Below, piece after piece: positions 1 through 3,422 of a stretch of DNA of 4,179 nt; position 1 is the stretch's first letter; every line of letters starts with the position of its first letter. A program made the position numbers and the translations under genes. The DNA comes from a virus (Duplodnaviria > Heunggongvirae > Uroviricota > Caudoviricetes): IMG/VR virus record IMGVR_UViG_2671181019_000011; one strand, given 5' to 3'. The notes beneath the pieces are model-generated. The model was not told the origin of the DNA. It was given only the letters and a program-made list of their open reading frames with translations, and did no database searches.

Positions 1-1242
1 ATGGCGAGAAAAACACACCCATTAACCACAGTGCAGATCAAAGCAGCCAGACCAGCGCAAAAGGAGTACACCCTGCAGGACGGCGGAGGGCTTTTTCTCC
101 TGGTCAAACCGTCTGGATCAAAACTCTGGAGATTTTCCTACTACCGACCATCGGACAAAAAAAGAATATTGCTGAGTTTTGGATCGCTTGAAGATGTTTC
201 CCTGGCTGATGCCAGAAAACGCCGTAGCGAGTACAGGACGTTAATCAGTGCCGGAACTGACCCGCAGGACCACGAGAGGCAAAAAAGAGAGACAGAGGCC
301 CGAAGACAAGGGAACACGTTCGAAAATGTGGCGGCGGCATGGTACCAGGTGAAAATCAGCCAGAATCTGGCCCCCAACACGATTAAAGACATCTGGCGTT
401 CGCTGGATAAATATGTATTCCCGTTCATCGGCAACACGCCAATAGATACCCTCACCGCCCGAAGGTTCGTTGAAGTGCTTACCCCCATCAAGGAGCGCGG
501 CAACCTGGAAACACTCAAGCGGGTTTTACAGCGCGTTAATGAGGTAATGGATTACGCCGCCAACAGTGGGCTGATTGATGCCAATCCGGCTATGAATGTG
601 CGTAAGGCGTTTCCCTCACCTGTAAAAAAACATATGCCAACAATCCGCCCCGAACAGCTGCCGGAGCTTATGCAGGCTTTATCAGTATCGGCAACAGAAC
701 GGCAGACCAGATTACTGATTGAATGGCAGTTACTGACCGTAACCCGTCCCGCCGAAGCGTCATCAACGCGGTGGGATGAAATCAACCTGGACGCGAAGCA
801 ATGGACGATACCTGCCGGACGTATGAAGATGCGCAGGGATCACGTTATCCCGCTTTCCGGTCAGGCTATGGCGGTGCTGGAGGCCATGAAACCAATCAGC
901 CACCACCGCAATTACGTTTTCCCAAGTCTGAAAGACCCACAGCAGCCGATGAACAGCCAGACAGCTAACGCAGCATTGCGGCGTATGGGATTCGCTGGCG
1001 TGCTGGTGTCTCATGGATTACGCGCCATATTCAGCACAGCAGCGAACGAGGAAGGATTCGAGCCGGACGTAATAGAGGCGGCACTTGCCCACGTCGACAC
1101 CAACGAAGTTAGACGGGCATACAACCGGAGCAACTACATAGAAAAACGCATCGTGCTGATGCGCTGGTGGGGCGAATTTGTCGAGGCTGCGGCGACGGGC
1201 GTAACCCTCGCCAGTGGTAAAAGGGGTATCCGAGCCGTGTAG
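1..1242 (+). CDS. int: Tyrosine-type site-specific recombinase, P4-family integrase (413 aa)
   Basis: ATG at 1, TAG at 1240-1242. N-terminal arm-binding-type region (LQDGGGLFLLVKPSGSKLWRFSYY) and C-terminal catalytic signatures: TVTRPAEA (Arg), HGLRAIFST (H-x-x-R), LAHVDTNEVRRAYNRSNY (Tyr nucleophile), LMRWWGEF tail typical of P4-like integrases. Confidence 0.95.
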   Translation: MARKTHPLTTVQIKAARPAQKEYTLQDGGGLFLLVKPSGSKLWRFSYYRPSDKKRILLSFGSLEDVSLADARKRRSEYRTLISAGTDPQDHERQKRETEARRQGNTFENVAAAWYQVKISQNLAPNTIKDIWRSLDKYVFPFIGNTPIDTLTARRFVEVLTPIKERGNLETLKRVLQRVNEVMDYAANSGLIDANPAMNVRKAFPSPVKKHMPTIRPEQLPELMQALSVSATERQTRLLIEWQLLTVTRPAEASSTRWDEINLDAKQWTIPAGRMKMRRDHVIPLSGQAMAVLEAMKPISHHRNYVFPSLKDPQQPMNSQTANAALRRMGFAGVLVSHGLRAIFSTAANEEGFEPDVIEAALAHVDTNEVRRAYNRSNYIEKRIVLMRWWGEFVEAAATGVTLASGKRGIRAV

Positions 1243-1250
1243 CTGTACAG

Positions 1251-1295
1251 AAAACCAGTAAAAACTACGAAAACCATGTAAAACCGTCGTATAAT
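1251..1295 (+). promoter_or_regulatory. Putative promoter: four phased A-tracts upstream of a consensus TATAAT
   Basis: AAAAC(C/T) at 1251, 1261, 1270 and 1280 (about 10-bp phasing) followed by TATAAT at 1290-1295. No good -35 hexamer (ACGAAA at 1267-1272), so the A-tracts may act as UP-like or curved DNA. Confidence 0.35.
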
Positions 1296-1319: not shown

Positions 1320-1571
1320 GTGAAACATGAAACCGTTAAGATGCAAAAAAATATCAGATGCAATTGCGACGGGCTGCAACTGGCCCTGATGGTTCAGCAT
1401 GAATTTTGGTCAACCTACGATCCGGAGGACAGAACGACGGCCCCATCAAAAAAACAGGTAGTAGACTTTCTGGTATCCCGTGGCGCTTCCAGAAATCTGG
1501 CGGTAAGTATTGATAAGGTCGTACGTCCGGCATCTATGAAGATCGGAGGCAGGCCCAAAAAATGGCGGTAA
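1320..1571 (+). CDS. Hypothetical small basic protein (83 aa from GTG 1320; 76 aa if ATG 1341)
   Basis: ORF ending TAA 1569-1571, immediately followed by a strong intrinsic terminator. Promoter-like element upstream. C-terminus basic (IGGRPKKWR). No family recognised; start codon uncertain because neither candidate has a good SD. Confidence 0.45.
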   Translation: MKHETVKMQKNIRCNCDGLQLALMVQHEFWSTYDPEDRTTAPSKKQVVDFLVSRGASRNLAVSIDKVVRPASMKIGGRPKKWR

Positions 1572-1632: not shown

Positions 1633-1722
1633 AAAAACGGTGTATACCGTTTAAAAACGGTGGGAACTGTTTTTACCCATATCCGATGATTTACCGTATT
1701 TGTCACCGGAATACACCGGATT
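1633..1722. promoter_or_regulatory. Repeat-rich regulatory region upstream of the AlpA-family gene (candidate protein-binding sites)
   Basis: Direct repeats AAAAACGGTG at 1633-1642 and 1653-1662; near-palindrome AACGGTGTATACCGTT at 1636-1651 (7 of 8 pairs); direct repeats CACCGGA(A/T)T at 1704-1712 and 1714-1722 (10-bp spacing); TTGTCA at 1700-1705. Confidence 0.3.
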
Positions 1723-1738
1723 CACAAGGTAAATCACG

Positions 1739-1945
1739 ATGGAAGCAATCAGAAAAATTATCTTTCGCCAGGAAGTAAAAAAAATTATCCACATCAAGGC
1801 AGACAGCACGCTGCAAAGCATGATCAACGCCGGAGAATTTCCGCAGGGTTTTCGCGCTGGTTTACGCCGTCGCGGATGGTATGAGGATGATGTGTTGGCC
1901 TGGCAGAAAGAACGCGAACAGGAAGCACGCGGAACGGCTGCTTAA
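1739..1945 (+). CDS. AlpA-family / excisionase-like HTH regulatory protein (68 aa)
   Basis: ATG 1739 with AAGGT 8 nt upstream; TAA 1943-1945. Size and sequence pattern (IIFRQEV...STLQSMINAGEFPQGFRAGLRRRGWYEDDVLAWQ) match the AlpA/Vis/Xis-type small HTH proteins found next to P4-like integrases. Family-level recognition only. Confidence 0.7.
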   Translation: MEAIRKIIFRQEVKKIIHIKADSTLQSMINAGEFPQGFRAGLRRRGWYEDDVLAWQKEREQEARGTAA

Positions 1946-2093: not shown

Positions 2094-2282
2094 TCAGTCT
2101 GGTTCAGTTCGTTGCCATACCTGCAATGAGCGCTTTTCCCTATACTCTTTAAGGAATTGCTCAAGGGCAAAAGCACATGGTGCGAATCTTTCTGATTCAT
2201 GCTCTATCTTTCTGCGCCGTCTTTTCCGTGCCGGTGATAATGTTTTGGTCAATTCTTTATCGGTCATTGTGTTGTCCTGCAT
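2094..2282 (-). CDS. Hypothetical small basic protein (62 aa; 57 aa if started at the second ATG, 2267)
   Basis: Minus-strand ORF downstream of the RHH gene and in the same frame. Contains RKRRRRK. AGGA lies 7 nt upstream of the second ATG. Codon usage resembles the RHH gene. No family recognised. Confidence 0.4.
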   Translation of the reverse strand: MQDNTMTDKELTKTLSPARKRRRRKIEHESERFAPCAFALEQFLKEYREKRSLQVWQRTEPD

Positions 2283-2324
2283 AGCAATGCGCCGTAATAC
2301 CTCACACCACGGCGCTGATAGTTT

Positions 2325-2516
2325 TTATCCTTTGGGTTCTATGCCGCGCCGCTTTAGTTCAGTGCGCCCCAACTCTTTAAGCCAGTTGGCTAGGCTTATG
2401 CCGTCGCTCTGTGCTTCTTTGTCGAATTGCTCTTTTAGCTCTGGAGAAATTCGCATTCTGAATTGTGGGGATTGCCCGTCCCCTTTAGGGCTTTTATCGC
2501 GTTTGATTGTTGACAA
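2325..2516 (-). CDS. Ribbon-helix-helix (Arc/CopG/Mnt-like) DNA-binding protein (63 aa, TTG start)
   Basis: QFRMRISPELKEQFDKEAQSDGISLANWLKELG matches the RHH beta-strand plus two-helix pattern (compare Arc QFNLRWPREVLDLVRKVAEENGRSVNSEIYQRV). TTG start at 2516 preceded by AGGTGA with 4-nt spacing; TAA at 2325-2327. Confidence 0.65.
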   Translation of the reverse strand: MSTIKRDKSPKGDGQSPQFRMRISPELKEQFDKEAQSDGISLANWLKELGRTELKRRGIEPKG

Positions 2517-2650: not shown

Positions 2651-3211
2651 ATGGTTGCCGTAAATCATATACCACACCTTGTACACACACAAACGGCCTT
2701 TGTGTGGCGTTTTCTGGCCCTGAATATCGGAGAAAAAAACCAGTTGATCGCCAGTGTCGAAAATAGCTATGATTCCCGCGCACCTCATAAAACGGGTGCC
2801 GGGATTGGCGTCCTGGGCAAAACTGAAGCGCATAACACGCGCCCCGCGTGTTTTTTTGTGCCGCATAGTCACACCTTATCAATGGTGGGCTGTACGGGGG
2901 CGGAGCAATCCGCGCCGGTTTCTTCAGTGTCCGGTTACGCCAACCCTGCACAGTCCGCCACCAGCGAAATTGGCGTTTCCGGTGGCGGTTATCTTAACCA
3001 CACTGAGGAGGCTGCCAACATGGCTACTATCCCTACCCTTGTACATTCTCAAACCGCCTTTCTCTGGCGCTTTATCATCTTTGGCGCGTCAGAACATCAA
3101 ATCATCCACGTAACCGCCTGGACGGAACGCGAAGCGCGTAGCCGTTGCCCGTCCGGTTGTGTTGCTGTATTCGCCGCCCGTATTCGTCAGGAGGTGTGCC
3201 ATGTGCAATAA
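2651..3211 (+). CDS. Tandem Icd-like (host cell division inhibitor Icd-like) ORF: two Icd-like modules in one frame (186 aa as sequenced); the first module may be frameshifted
   Basis: AGGAG at 2641-2645, ATG 2651, TAA 3209-3211. N-terminal motif IPHLVHTQTAFVWRF repeats as IPTLVHSQTAFLWRF at residue 124. The modules are joined by a Gly/Ser/Ala-rich low-complexity stretch that coincides with GC-rich RNA hairpins. Icd-like assignment is from remembered family motifs, not a search. Confidence 0.45.
   Translation: MVAVNHIPHLVHTQTAFVWRFLALNIGEKNQLIASVENSYDSRAPHKTGAGIGVLGKTEAHNTRPACFFVPHSHTLSMVGCTGAEQSAPVSSVSGYANPAQSATSEIGVSGGGYLNHTEEAANMATIPTLVHSQTAFLWRFIIFGASEHQIIHVTAWTEREARSRCPSGCVAVFAARIRQEVCHVQ
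2897..3011 (+). promoter_or_regulatory. Structured RNA region upstream of the second Icd-like start: two hairpins plus anti-SD pairing (candidate C4/CI-like antisense RNA or translational control element)
   Basis: Hairpin 1: 2898-2904 / 2909-2916 with GCAA tetraloop. Hairpin 2: CCGCCACC 2955-2962 / GGTGGCGG 2981-2988. Long-range pairing 2921-2930 (UCUUCAGUGU) with 3000-3009 (ACACUGAGGA) sequesters part of the SD (AGGAGG 3006-3011). Confidence 0.3.
3020..3211 (+). CDS. Icd-like protein, second module, expressed from an internal start (63 aa)
   Basis: Strong SD AGGAGG at 3006-3011 with 8-nt spacing to ATG 3020. Product MATIPTLVHSQTAFLWRF...TEREARSRCPSGCVAVFAARIRQEVCHVQ has the size and motifs of a small Icd-like protein. 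Confidence 0.55.
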   Translation: MATIPTLVHSQTAFLWRFIIFGASEHQIIHVTAWTEREARSRCPSGCVAVFAARIRQEVCHVQ

Positions 3212-3422
3212 AACCACACCGGACGCAGCAGCCGCCGCGCTCACTACGCTGATGCACGCGCTTATCGATATTGAATGCACTGCAGAGCTTGCGCAGGGAG
3301 AAGAACAGAAAGACCGGACACAGTTCGCCCTGGAATGTATCCGATACATCGCAACGCGGTCGCTGAATGACGCTAAAAATATTCTTGTTGCTGATTGTGA
3401 AAATGGGGGGGGTTATGCGTGA
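3201..3422 (+). CDS. Hypothetical small acidic protein (73 aa)
   Basis: AGGAGG at 3189-3194, 6-nt spacer, ATG 3201; overlaps the Icd-like stop by 11 nt. TGA at 3420-3422. An Ala-rich segment; no family recognised. Confidence 0.6.
   Translation: MCNKTTPDAAAAALTTLMHALIDIECTAELAQGEEQKDRTQFALECIRYIATRSLNDAKNILVADCENGGGYA

Follow-up and report, generated by a model that had tools for sequence, protein, structure and literature searches.

Phased repeats, tandem dyads and a predicted ribosome-site hairpin in the putative alpA control region of a Gram-negative phage-inducible chromosomal island

The stretch analyzed here (4,179 nucleotides of the IMG/VR virus record IMGVR_UViG_2671181019_000011, hereafter the window, to which coordinates refer unless another sequence is named) covers the left-hand end of a phage-inducible chromosomal island (PICI) of the Gram-negative type, located at a tRNA-Pro gene and comprises the integrase gene int, the small open reading frame (ORF) orf76, a terminator, a 134-bp control region and alpA. 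From sequence comparison, we propose that positions 1605-1738 form the alpA control region and combine operators for AlpA itself (a CACCGGA pair, block B), a separate operator composed of tandem dyads (block A) and an RNA hairpin over the ribosome-binding site, a joint explanation that we give about an even chance of being correct. The region as such is of a known kind, and its interest lies in concrete cis-elements for how helper phages induce Gram-negative PICIs: the manner in which helpers switch on these islands has been open since 2018, with AlpA known as the switch and no cis-element mapped (PMC6092414). The candidate sites comprise a probable AlpA operator whose motif recurs in the attachment (att) arm and through which excision would be tied to autoregulation, a distinct and lineage-specific dyad operator, which would be a natural place for the helper signal to enter, and a probable translational lock.

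DNA with 99.9% identity is present in Escherichia coli FDAARGOS_946 as an 8.5-kb island that extends from tRNA-Pro to yejO, and the coordinates of the att arms were taken from L001, an island copy of ~8.5 kb between the same two genes. The island encodes, in this order, int (with whose ATG the window begins), a small hypothetical ORF, alpA (a helix-turn-helix (HTH) regulator), an Icd-like gene, DUF4222, a primase, terS and a capsid-family gene, and L001 displays the traits of Gram-negative PICIs, namely co-oriented int and alpA, a primase, packaging/capsid genes, a small size and an att site of its own. Judged by its gene layout, the element is a Gram-negative PICI of the EcCICFT073 type and as such would be inducible by helpers. 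The alpA upstream region occurs in 374 of 5426 complete E. coli genomes, and the copies of the island in the tractable strains Nissle 1917 and ATCC 25922 are 99.5% identical.

Phased repeats upstream of alpA

The initial annotation of this DNA had drawn attention to a 10-mer, AAAAACGGTG, occurring twice at a distance of 20 bp, to a CACCGGA(A/T)T pair with 10-bp spacing upstream of the start codon, and to a 16-bp near-palindrome, AACGGTGTATACCGTT. All three were recovered, the 10-mer at 1633-1642 and 1653-1662 (20 bp start to start), the pair at 1704-1712 and 1714-1722 and the near-palindrome at 1636-1651, where seven of the eight pairs are palindromic. A repeat search revealed that the first of these belongs to a larger structure than had been described, a 20-nt unit repeated in tandem with 80% identity, each unit being a dyad of its own (Table 1).

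Table 1. Coordinates of features in the window and, where L001 is named, in the att arms of the island copy.
Feature	Position	Strand or centre	Basis and remarks
P4-type tyrosine integrase with N-terminal arm-DNA-binding domain	1-1242	+	Pfam Arm-DNA-bind_3, Phage_int_M, Phage_integrase; adjoins tRNA-Pro in L001
Four ~10-bp-phased (T/G)AAAAC units directly after the int stop codon, then TATAAT (1290-1295)	1250-1295	+	Kept in all five aligned variants
orf76, small helical protein with basic tail GGRPKKWR	1341-1571	+	Conserved ORF
Rho-independent terminator	1579-1602 plus T run to 1609	+	Terminator scan
Block A unit 1, dyad AAACGGT-GTAT-ACCGTTT	1633-1652	centre 1643.5	Repeat search
Block A unit 2, dyad AAACGGT-GGGA-ACTGTTT	1653-1672	centre 1663.5	Repeat search
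Weak candidate promoter: -35 TTTTTA (1670-1675), 16-nt spacer, -10 TACCGT (1692-1697)	1670-1697	+	Score 3.3
5' arm of inverted repeat, TGATTTACC	1687-1695	+	9 bp, perfect
Block B copy 1, CACCGGAAT	1704-1712	+	Repeat search, heptamer count
Block B copy 2, CACCGGATT	1714-1722	+	Repeat search; ends 16 nt 5' of the ATG at 1739
Shine-Dalgarno AAGGT (1726-1730), overlapping the 3' arm GGTAAATCA (1728-1736)	1726-1736	+	Repeat search, fold
alpA-like gene, 68 aa, small HTH excisionase/regulator	1739-1945	+	PHROG_66, BLASTP
Phased CACCGGA-type arrays of the attL arm	L001 14548/14558/14568 and 14632/14642/14662	+	Motif scan outside the window
Doubled TTAGTTATACG	L001 14673-14696 (within 14673-14730), ~132 bp past the attL core; L001 22931-22954, ~82 bp before the attR core		Motif scan

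It had furthermore been suggested that these repeats have the look of protein-binding sites and are not a random AT-rich spacer, an assessment that agrees both with shuffling and with natural variation. Among 5000 dinucleotide-preserving shuffles of the intergenic stretch 1605-1738, only 0.16% contained a phased exact repeat of at least 10 nt and 0.08% two separate phased repeats of at least 7 nt. Within the window, the dyad pattern occurs twice (0.23 copies expected; reached by 6 of 200 shuffles) and CACCGGA five times (0.39 expected), a number reached by none of 200 shuffles. Natural variants were collected from E. coli genomes and IMG/VR contigs, and throughout the 22 distinct versions both blocks and their spacing are kept, with no insertion or deletion between block A, block B and the ATG except changes of whole units. 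Upon alignment with E. coli copies of ~90% and ~78% identity, replacement or heavy substitution was seen in the terminator region and in the 13-15 nt that separate the two blocks, the persisting stretches being 1629-1676 with block A (ATAAAAAACnGTGnnTACCGTTTnAAAACGGTGnGnACTGTTTTTnCC) and 1690-1722 with block B and its left flank (TTTACCGTATTTnTCACCGGAATACnCCGGATT).

That the repeats arose by chance in an AT-rich spacer and have no function appears scarcely tenable in view of these data. The motifs are admittedly short, and a relaxed CACCGGA-N3-CACCGGA pattern with three mismatches was matched in 40 of 200 shuffles; however, the shuffle probability of the arrangement observed is ~0.001, both blocks are retained next to diverged flanks in the 22 variants, and block B is kept down to 53% AlpA identity and recurs at attL, so that conservation already contradicts chance.

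The CACCGGA pair and the att arms

Throughout the 8.5-kb island of L001, CACCGGA is found nine times on the plus strand and never on the minus strand. The attL arm, 218 bp in length, accounts for four of these copies, set at 10-bp phase, and a further two precede alpA; two or more copies within an arm of this length arose in a fraction of 5e-5 of the shuffles. In the attL arm, three copies follow one another at 10-bp spacing, the first lying 8 bp past the 3' end of tRNA-Pro (CACCGGAtatCACCGGAaagCACCGGAtaa), and a second phased cluster stands after a hairpin (CACCGAAcatCACCGGAttt...AGCCGGAttt). A search for the same motifs near the att sites outside the window, envisaged in the initial annotation, is consequently positive for CACCGGA, with its phased clusters after tRNA-Pro, while no CACCGGA array was found in the attR arm. 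Single copies also occur in or at the ends of downstream ORFs, at 2978-84 (-), 3217-23 (+) and 3862-68 (+) of the window and at 17814, 19066 and 21316 of L001, for which coding bias and weak extra sites are both conceivable.

More distant relatives were taken from a scan of viral contigs with the AlpA protein, which gave 68 loci, 15 of them with AlpA homologues of 34-65% identity. In 10 of 14 homologues at 53-65% AlpA identity, a CCGG(A/T)-N5-CCGG(A/T) pair is situated ~20-30 nt before the start codon, directly 5' of the Shine-Dalgarno sequence, and the remaining upstream DNA is unalignable. Since the CCGG pair is kept where the other upstream DNA differs, block B appears to be the deeply conserved part of the region and to travel with the AlpA clade. 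Two loci (L004, L155) carry one extra 10-bp unit, CACCGGAATA, resulting in three copies with helical phase retained.

Recombination directionality factors typically recognize direct repeats spaced by one helical turn, and promoter regulation is a second task of some of them (PMC7498355, PMC3936717, PMC2603039). Block B has the corresponding properties, that is, direct repeats at 10 bp, a motif present at both att arm and promoter, and a sequence distinct from the arm-type sites of the integrase. The latter probably correspond to another motif: just before int, the attL arm contains an 11-mer, TTAGTTATACG, twice in direct and twice in inverted orientation, and doubled copies of it lie on both arms (Table 1). 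A natural domain swap allows the two motifs to be told apart. Between the loci L192 and L195, AlpA is 96% identical and the integrase 98%, apart from its N-terminal 95 residues with only 66%; the doubled motif upstream of int changes from TTAGTTATAC to TTGGGACTAC, whereas the CCGG-type units are the same in both loci, in the arm as well as upstream of alpA. Because only the doubled motif switches with the N-terminal domain of the integrase, it is the doubled motif, and not the CCGG-type units, that would be the integrase arm-type site. It also shows the further properties of such sites, being present on both arms at a fixed distance, and its geometry (about -81 and +132 from the core) equals that of the "doubled motif" of HE-PICIs, which was described for these elements only and whose reader was left open (PMC10111431). 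Annotated doubled arm repeats that flank the core of P4 attP on either side match the TTAGTTATACG pairs in geometry as well. The domain-swap comparison hence assigns the doubled motif of PICI attP to the arm domain of the integrase, the point on which the earlier work had not decided (PMC10111431).

Among the three readers that had initially been offered for the repeats (AlpA, the integrase at arm-type sites, or a helper-encoded regulator), the integrase is consequently a very improbable one. Its arm-binding domain and the position of the CACCGGA arrays in the int-proximal att arm, reminiscent of lambda P'1-P'3, would speak for it. Yet CACCGGA is confined to that arm, the dyads of block A are absent from att, both blocks lie at least 1.6 kb from the att core, and the doubled TTAGTTATACG, with its P4/HE-PICI geometry, is the motif that follows the swapped domain. 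A helper regulator comes into question for the AAACGGT dyads only (see below). AlpA is the best-supported reader of the CACCGGA pair, because the motif is common to att arm and promoter, because it is deeply conserved together with AlpA, and because Vis, Apl and Cox provide precedents. By exclusion and by analogy with P4 Vis, 186 Apl and P2 Cox, block B is best read as a set of putative operators for AlpA in a dual role as excisionase and regulator.

The tandem dyads

Block A differs from block B in symmetry and in distribution. Substitutions in the 22 variants fall into the 4-nt spacers and one outer half-site position, the half-sites being invariant or nearly so; conserved half-sites with varying spacers are the signature expected of a dyad that is read by a dimer. 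In one variant (L153), dyad 1 has become a perfect 18-bp palindrome, AAACGGTTATAACCGTTT, by which CGGTG is lost and the symmetry improved, and in two others (L133, L148) exactly one 20-bp unit is deleted and one unit left. AAACGGT dyads were found nowhere else in the L001 island, including attL.

None of the 15 distant AlpA loci (all below 66% identity) has block A, although the AlpA recognition helix is conserved there. Because this helix persists in lineages without block A, AlpA is unlikely to be its sole reader. Conservation in homologous islands, named as a check in the initial annotation, holds for both blocks among the 22 variants and for the block B pair down to 53% AlpA identity, but not for block A below 66%. 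At the position of block A, other lineages carry other repeats, namely four copies of ACTTCCA (L183, L186), two of CTACCAACA (L185) or two of TTTACCAAAGT (L196). Block A coincides with an orf76 homologue in 53 of 53 loci and was found in none of 15 loci lacking orf76. On the basis of these patterns, we take block A to be a putative operator, specific to this lineage, at which a dimeric regulator distinct from AlpA would bind, with a helper protein or Orf76 as candidates.

A simpler scheme would have one protein read everything: AlpA would occupy seven CGG-centred sites (four half-sites in block A, one ACCGT at 1693-97 and both copies of CACCGGA) and form a wrapped filament over ~90 bp in the manner of Cox or Apl, thereby remodelling its own promoter. 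A common core could be discerned, as AAAAACGGTG is similar to block B read in reverse complement, (A/T)(A/T)TCCGGTG, and a 20-nt inverted match of 80% connects 1638-57 with 1699-1718. In addition, the att arm contains in-phase units of the kind AATCGGT, CATCGGT and AAACGGT, the sites of block A are spaced by 9-11 bp, and Cox boxes are known to occur in both orientations and to cover at least 70 bp (PMC3936717). Nevertheless, we consider this scheme unlikely, given that AlpA homologues at 53-65% identity without block A keep both the recognition helix and the CCGG pair, that the perfect palindrome of L153 gives up CGGTG in favor of symmetry, as would suit a dimer reading the dyad, and that the attL of the window's own island has no AAACGGT dyad.

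A scan of viral contigs for AAACGGT-N4-ACCGTTT returned at least 120 loci, and among the matches listed the tandem dyad is confined to 15 copies of this island, the others being chance or coding matches (e.g., a capsid motif with the spacer CATG). No match to the region was obtained by BLAST in a set of 50,697 phage genomes, and the tandem dyad was not found in any sampled phage sequence. In genome contigs, the 27-nt block A pattern was matched only by two contigs of planctomycete metagenome-assembled genomes (L199 and L200), with ~0.3 chance matches expected. These carry ACCGTTTTAAAACGGTAC..ACTGTTTT at 3342-3368 (L199) and 4520-4630 (L200) and are otherwise unlike the window; ~50 nt downstream of the match stands TTACCGTATTT in L199 and TTACCGCTTTT in L200, where the match is located directly 3' of a tRNA gene and accompanied by a tandem TACCGTTTTA repeat. 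Such matches could be due to chance or to an unrelated integrative element with a similar motif.

A predicted hairpin over the ribosome-binding site

The CACCGGA pair is bracketed by a 9-bp inverted repeat, whose 3' arm overlaps the Shine-Dalgarno sequence. Folding of the RNA 1625-1745 (z-score -4.1, with -4.2 recorded for the hairpin fold) pairs 1687-95 with 1728-36, covers the Shine-Dalgarno sequence and places a CCGG/CCGG stem at the apex. In the 78% clade, A1689T and T1734A form a compensatory pair. A duplex test for the arm 1687-1695 yielded p = 0.0045, and analogous arms against the Shine-Dalgarno sequence exist in other lineages (Fisher combined p = 2.4e-4 over nine lineages), for example the pair GCTCCACT/AGTGGAG in L187 (p = 0.001). 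The stem-loop 1687-1736 is therefore a probable translational lock. Fold-back inhibition of this kind, which the proposed alpA lock resembles, is familiar from the IS10 transposase.

From these structures it might be argued that the region acts mainly at the RNA level, with the block A hairpin and the lock at 1687-1736 as a structured leader or attenuator of a transcript started upstream and the repeats as mere by-products. In addition to the fold itself, in which block A appears as a 16-bp hairpin and the Shine-Dalgarno sequence is paired, and to the compensatory pair 1689/1734, this would be in line with G1639A in the 78% clade, which turns a G-U into an A-U pair, and with the apical CCGG/CCGG stem, invariant in 11 sequences, CCGG being self-complementary. 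We nonetheless judge this explanation doubtful and rather improbable. CACCGGA forms direct-repeat arrays at attL, where there is no such hairpin; any DNA palindrome also folds as RNA, so that the hairpin of block A is trivially expected; its variants are not compensatory (u5, L004); and a terminator is located just upstream, with no conserved promoter between it and block A. Nor is block A itself an intrinsic terminator: no call was made on the plus strand, where no U tract follows it, and the minus strand gave a weak call (seven pairs with three G-C).

Candidate promoter and proposed mechanism

No strong sigma-70 promoter is conserved in the alpA control region, and TTTTT(A/C)-16-TACCGT is the only sigma-70-like pair kept across the variants. 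Motifs for sigma-E, sigma-54, integration host factor (IHF), lambda CII (TTGC-N6-TTGC) and Ogr/delta (TGT-N12-ACA) were sought by eye and are absent or unconserved. With this candidate, transcription would begin around 1704, the two dyads would be centred at about -41 and -61, and block B would cover +1 to +19. Positions -41 and -61 would be the usual promoter-proximal and promoter-distal positions of activator dimers; a repressor blocking the -35 region would be equally compatible.

In the joint explanation favored here, AlpA would occupy the CACCGGA pair in the manner of a winged-helix recombination directionality factor, with one monomer to each helical turn, and the same protein on the phased arrays of the attL arm would direct excision, which would thus be coupled to the control of its own gene. 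On alpA it may act positively, the effect measured for EcCICFT073 AlpA, or negatively, like P4 Vis. Whether alpA is transcribed would be decided by a second protein, a dimeric regulator (from the helper phage, or Orf76) that binds the dyads of block A, ~41 and ~61 bp upstream of the start from a weak promoter that looks activator-dependent. Transcripts started upstream of ~1687 (by read-through of the terminator) would have their ribosome-binding site hidden and give no AlpA, while those started near 1704 would lack the 5' arm and be translatable. Observed in this scheme are the sequence features, their conservation, their recurrence at attL and their distinctness from the integrase arm-type motif; which protein reads which site, where the promoter lies and how the RNA pairs are deduced.

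One may go further and regard block A as the missing input of Gram-negative PICI induction, that is, as the lineage-specific operator through which a helper switches on alpA, a tentative idea that we think less likely to be right than wrong. A helper protein, for instance an excisionase or regulator, could then bind directly, as does P2 Cox at P4 PLL, or Orf76 could be a hitherto unrecognized master repressor of the PICI and be inactivated by a protein of the helper. If this were true, the differing repeats at the position of block A in other lineages would encode helper specificity.

Several observations weigh against the joint explanation. AlpA and the integrase co-vary in most of the loci compared, and the assignment of CACCGGA to AlpA draws on analogy and on a single domain swap by which the integrase is excluded; its reader might also be a host factor. 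The location of block B at +1 to +19 would suit repression better than the positive autoregulation of EcCICFT073, and the promoter call itself is weak (score 3.3). Co-occurrence of block A and orf76 lies within one clade, in which the two loci are adjacent, and may therefore reflect linkage only, and fold and profile searches gave Orf76 no DNA-binding assignment and no decisive fold match. The AAACGGT half-sites resemble in-phase units of the att arm (AATCGGT; AAACGGT in L002 and L010), and AlpA might thus read both. As to the lock, the duplex test is not significant for several of the lineages when taken singly, and RNAalifold on a MAFFT alignment of distant leaders returned the apical CCGG/CCGG stem only, the basal arms being out of register.

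Comparison with known systems

For PalpA of EcCICFT073, whose regulation has been characterized at the level of reporters, AlpA was shown to stimulate its own promoter and not Pint, and the helpers lambda and phi80 turn alpA on, with neither sites nor inducer mapped (Fillol-Salom et al. 2018, PMC6092414). This promoter belongs to the same type of element with the same gene order and likewise has a 10-bp-phased pair before alpA whose motif recurs in attL-arm arrays: GAACAAC/GACACAA is arrayed at 10-bp phase both in the attL arm and downstream of int, and it forms a 10-bp pair before alpA. The correspondence is one of sequence pattern only, as the AlpA proteins are 28% identical, the motif is a different one, and EcCICFT073 has no orf76 and no AAACGGT dyads.

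The closest system is PLL-vis of P4, in which a helper-responsive promoter drives the AlpA homologue Vis, the first gene after the promoter. Vis is described as an excisionase acting at attP that also serves as a repressor of Pint and controls the promoter from which it is expressed, PLL (cited in PMC2603039, PMC7286903). Upstream in the PLL sequence lie phased sites for helper proteins (three Cox boxes at 10-bp intervals plus TGT-N12-ACA), and the core of P4 attP is flanked on either side by doubled arm repeats, like the two-fold TTAGTTATACG of the PICI. In contrast to P4, the PICI has two AAACGGT-N4-ACNGTTT dyads as its upstream element, where P4 has Cox boxes and an Ogr/delta site; islands of its type have lambdoid helpers rather than P2-like ones; and orf76 and a terminator stand between int and alpA, along with the probable translational lock. 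A CCGGA/TCCGG pair in the vis leader is no more than a lead, the 5-mer occurring at 4.4 per kb in P4, too often for significance.

The operators of 186 Apl and P2 Cox are also direct repeats 10-11 bp apart, at att as well as at promoters, where binding is cooperative and bends the DNA (PMC7498355, PMC3936717). For Apl, five att sites and seven promoter sites are known (PMC7498355), and Cox, with boxes 10-11 bp apart, activates from the helper the P4 promoter PLL, a satellite promoter driving an alpA homologue (PMC3936717). Both proteins differ from the present case in sequence family, and the promoter sites number two here versus seven for Apl. Block A, in turn, is reminiscent of the tandem dyad operators of dimeric phage regulators and of class I/II activator sites, with which it has two-fold half-sites and variable spacers in common; its 20-bp centre spacing (two helical turns) near -41/-61 of a weak promoter would match the latter, the start position being a predicted one.

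The AlpA-like protein

The 68-aa product of 1739-1945 matches PHROG_66 ("excisionase and transcriptional regulator"; E = 7.9e-7), EcCICFT073 AlpA (BLASTP E = 5e-7, 28% identity) and P4 Vis (BLASTP E = 7e-8, 31% identity). It stays below the Pfam threshold for PF05930 (15.4 bits against a cut-off of 21; E = 0.017), has no match in NCBIfam and no significant one in sequence searches of the PDB, where a chain called "AlpA family" (8c3t) appeared at E = 0.95; some copies are named "AlpA family" in RefSeq. In the PICI, it is the first regulator gene 3' of int. By pairwise homology to characterized members and by its genomic position, the gene is classed as AlpA-like. An AlphaFold2 model was poor (predicted local distance difference test (pLDDT) 61) and was not used. 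A protein scan of genome contigs with AlpA found no relative, and a word-indexed protein search returned only E. coli and Shigella matches, all with at least 78% identity.

The AlpA of Pseudomonas, a Q-like antiterminator, was considered and rejected, as it is another and larger protein (at least 142 residues versus 68) with only the name in common; its HTH contacts lie at R128-H142, its fold is like that of the 21Q antiterminator, and it reads a 6-bp AlpA-binding element (ABE) between -35 and -10 (PMC9371919). In the copy of E. coli RM13745 (L003 4119-4300), low-complexity sequence breaks alpA after codon 10, blocks A and B being intact.

Orf76 and the region between int and alpA

Homologues of orf76 were found only in E. 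coli and are all annotated as hypothetical. An AlphaFold2 model (pLDDT 80) shows three helices and a basic tail, and Orf76 is a candidate reader of block A. A 90-aa protein (P0036) that seemed to connect Orf76 with PF05930 was discarded, since it proved to be a fusion (orf76::alpA) created by a deletion that removed the entire control region; it is labelled Cooperia oncophora, probably owing to contamination. The phased units and TATAAT at 1250-1295 are likely to be the orf76 promoter; at the equivalent place, EcCICFT073 (L007 11181-11240) has six phased GAACAAC units. The terminator at 1579-1609 is predicted to insulate alpA from int/orf76 transcription, and in the 78% clade its place is taken by a hairpin and T run of other sequence. 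In other lineages, ORFs of 257-271 aa stand between int and alpA, for which no Pfam family was matched.

Other features downstream of alpA

A reverse-strand module 3' of alpA varies among related islands (2094-2516 (-) in the window, 3508-3958 in L004/L005, 3619-4353 in L002). The version of the window comprises an Arc/HicB-like gene and a 62-aa ORF, the versions elsewhere YlcI/YnfO and a hypothetical ORF. With strong terminators on its flanks (1972-2004 and 2586-2622), the module resembles a swappable accessory cassette, and in U90 it lies between two partial Icd-like pseudogenes, one without the C-terminus and one without the N-terminus, and thus seems to split the Icd-like gene. Between the Arc/HicB-like gene (2325-2516) and the forward operon, a perfect TTGACA is found at 2510-2515, and GTGGTCACCT occurs twice (2517-2526 and 2552-2561), 35 bp apart and with the palindrome GGTCACC inside each copy; this pair is a likely operator pair for the Arc-like protein.

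Rfam searches furthermore detected a C4 antisense RNA at 2878-2965 (+) with 73.8 bits and isrK at 2780-2856 (+) with 66 bits, together with a weak match to the c4 a1/b1 target at 2767-2819. All of these matches (2767-2965) are situated within the long "Icd-like" ORF 2651-3211, and by their combination this segment is predicted to be an immunity RNA module of the P1/P4 type inside the PICI.

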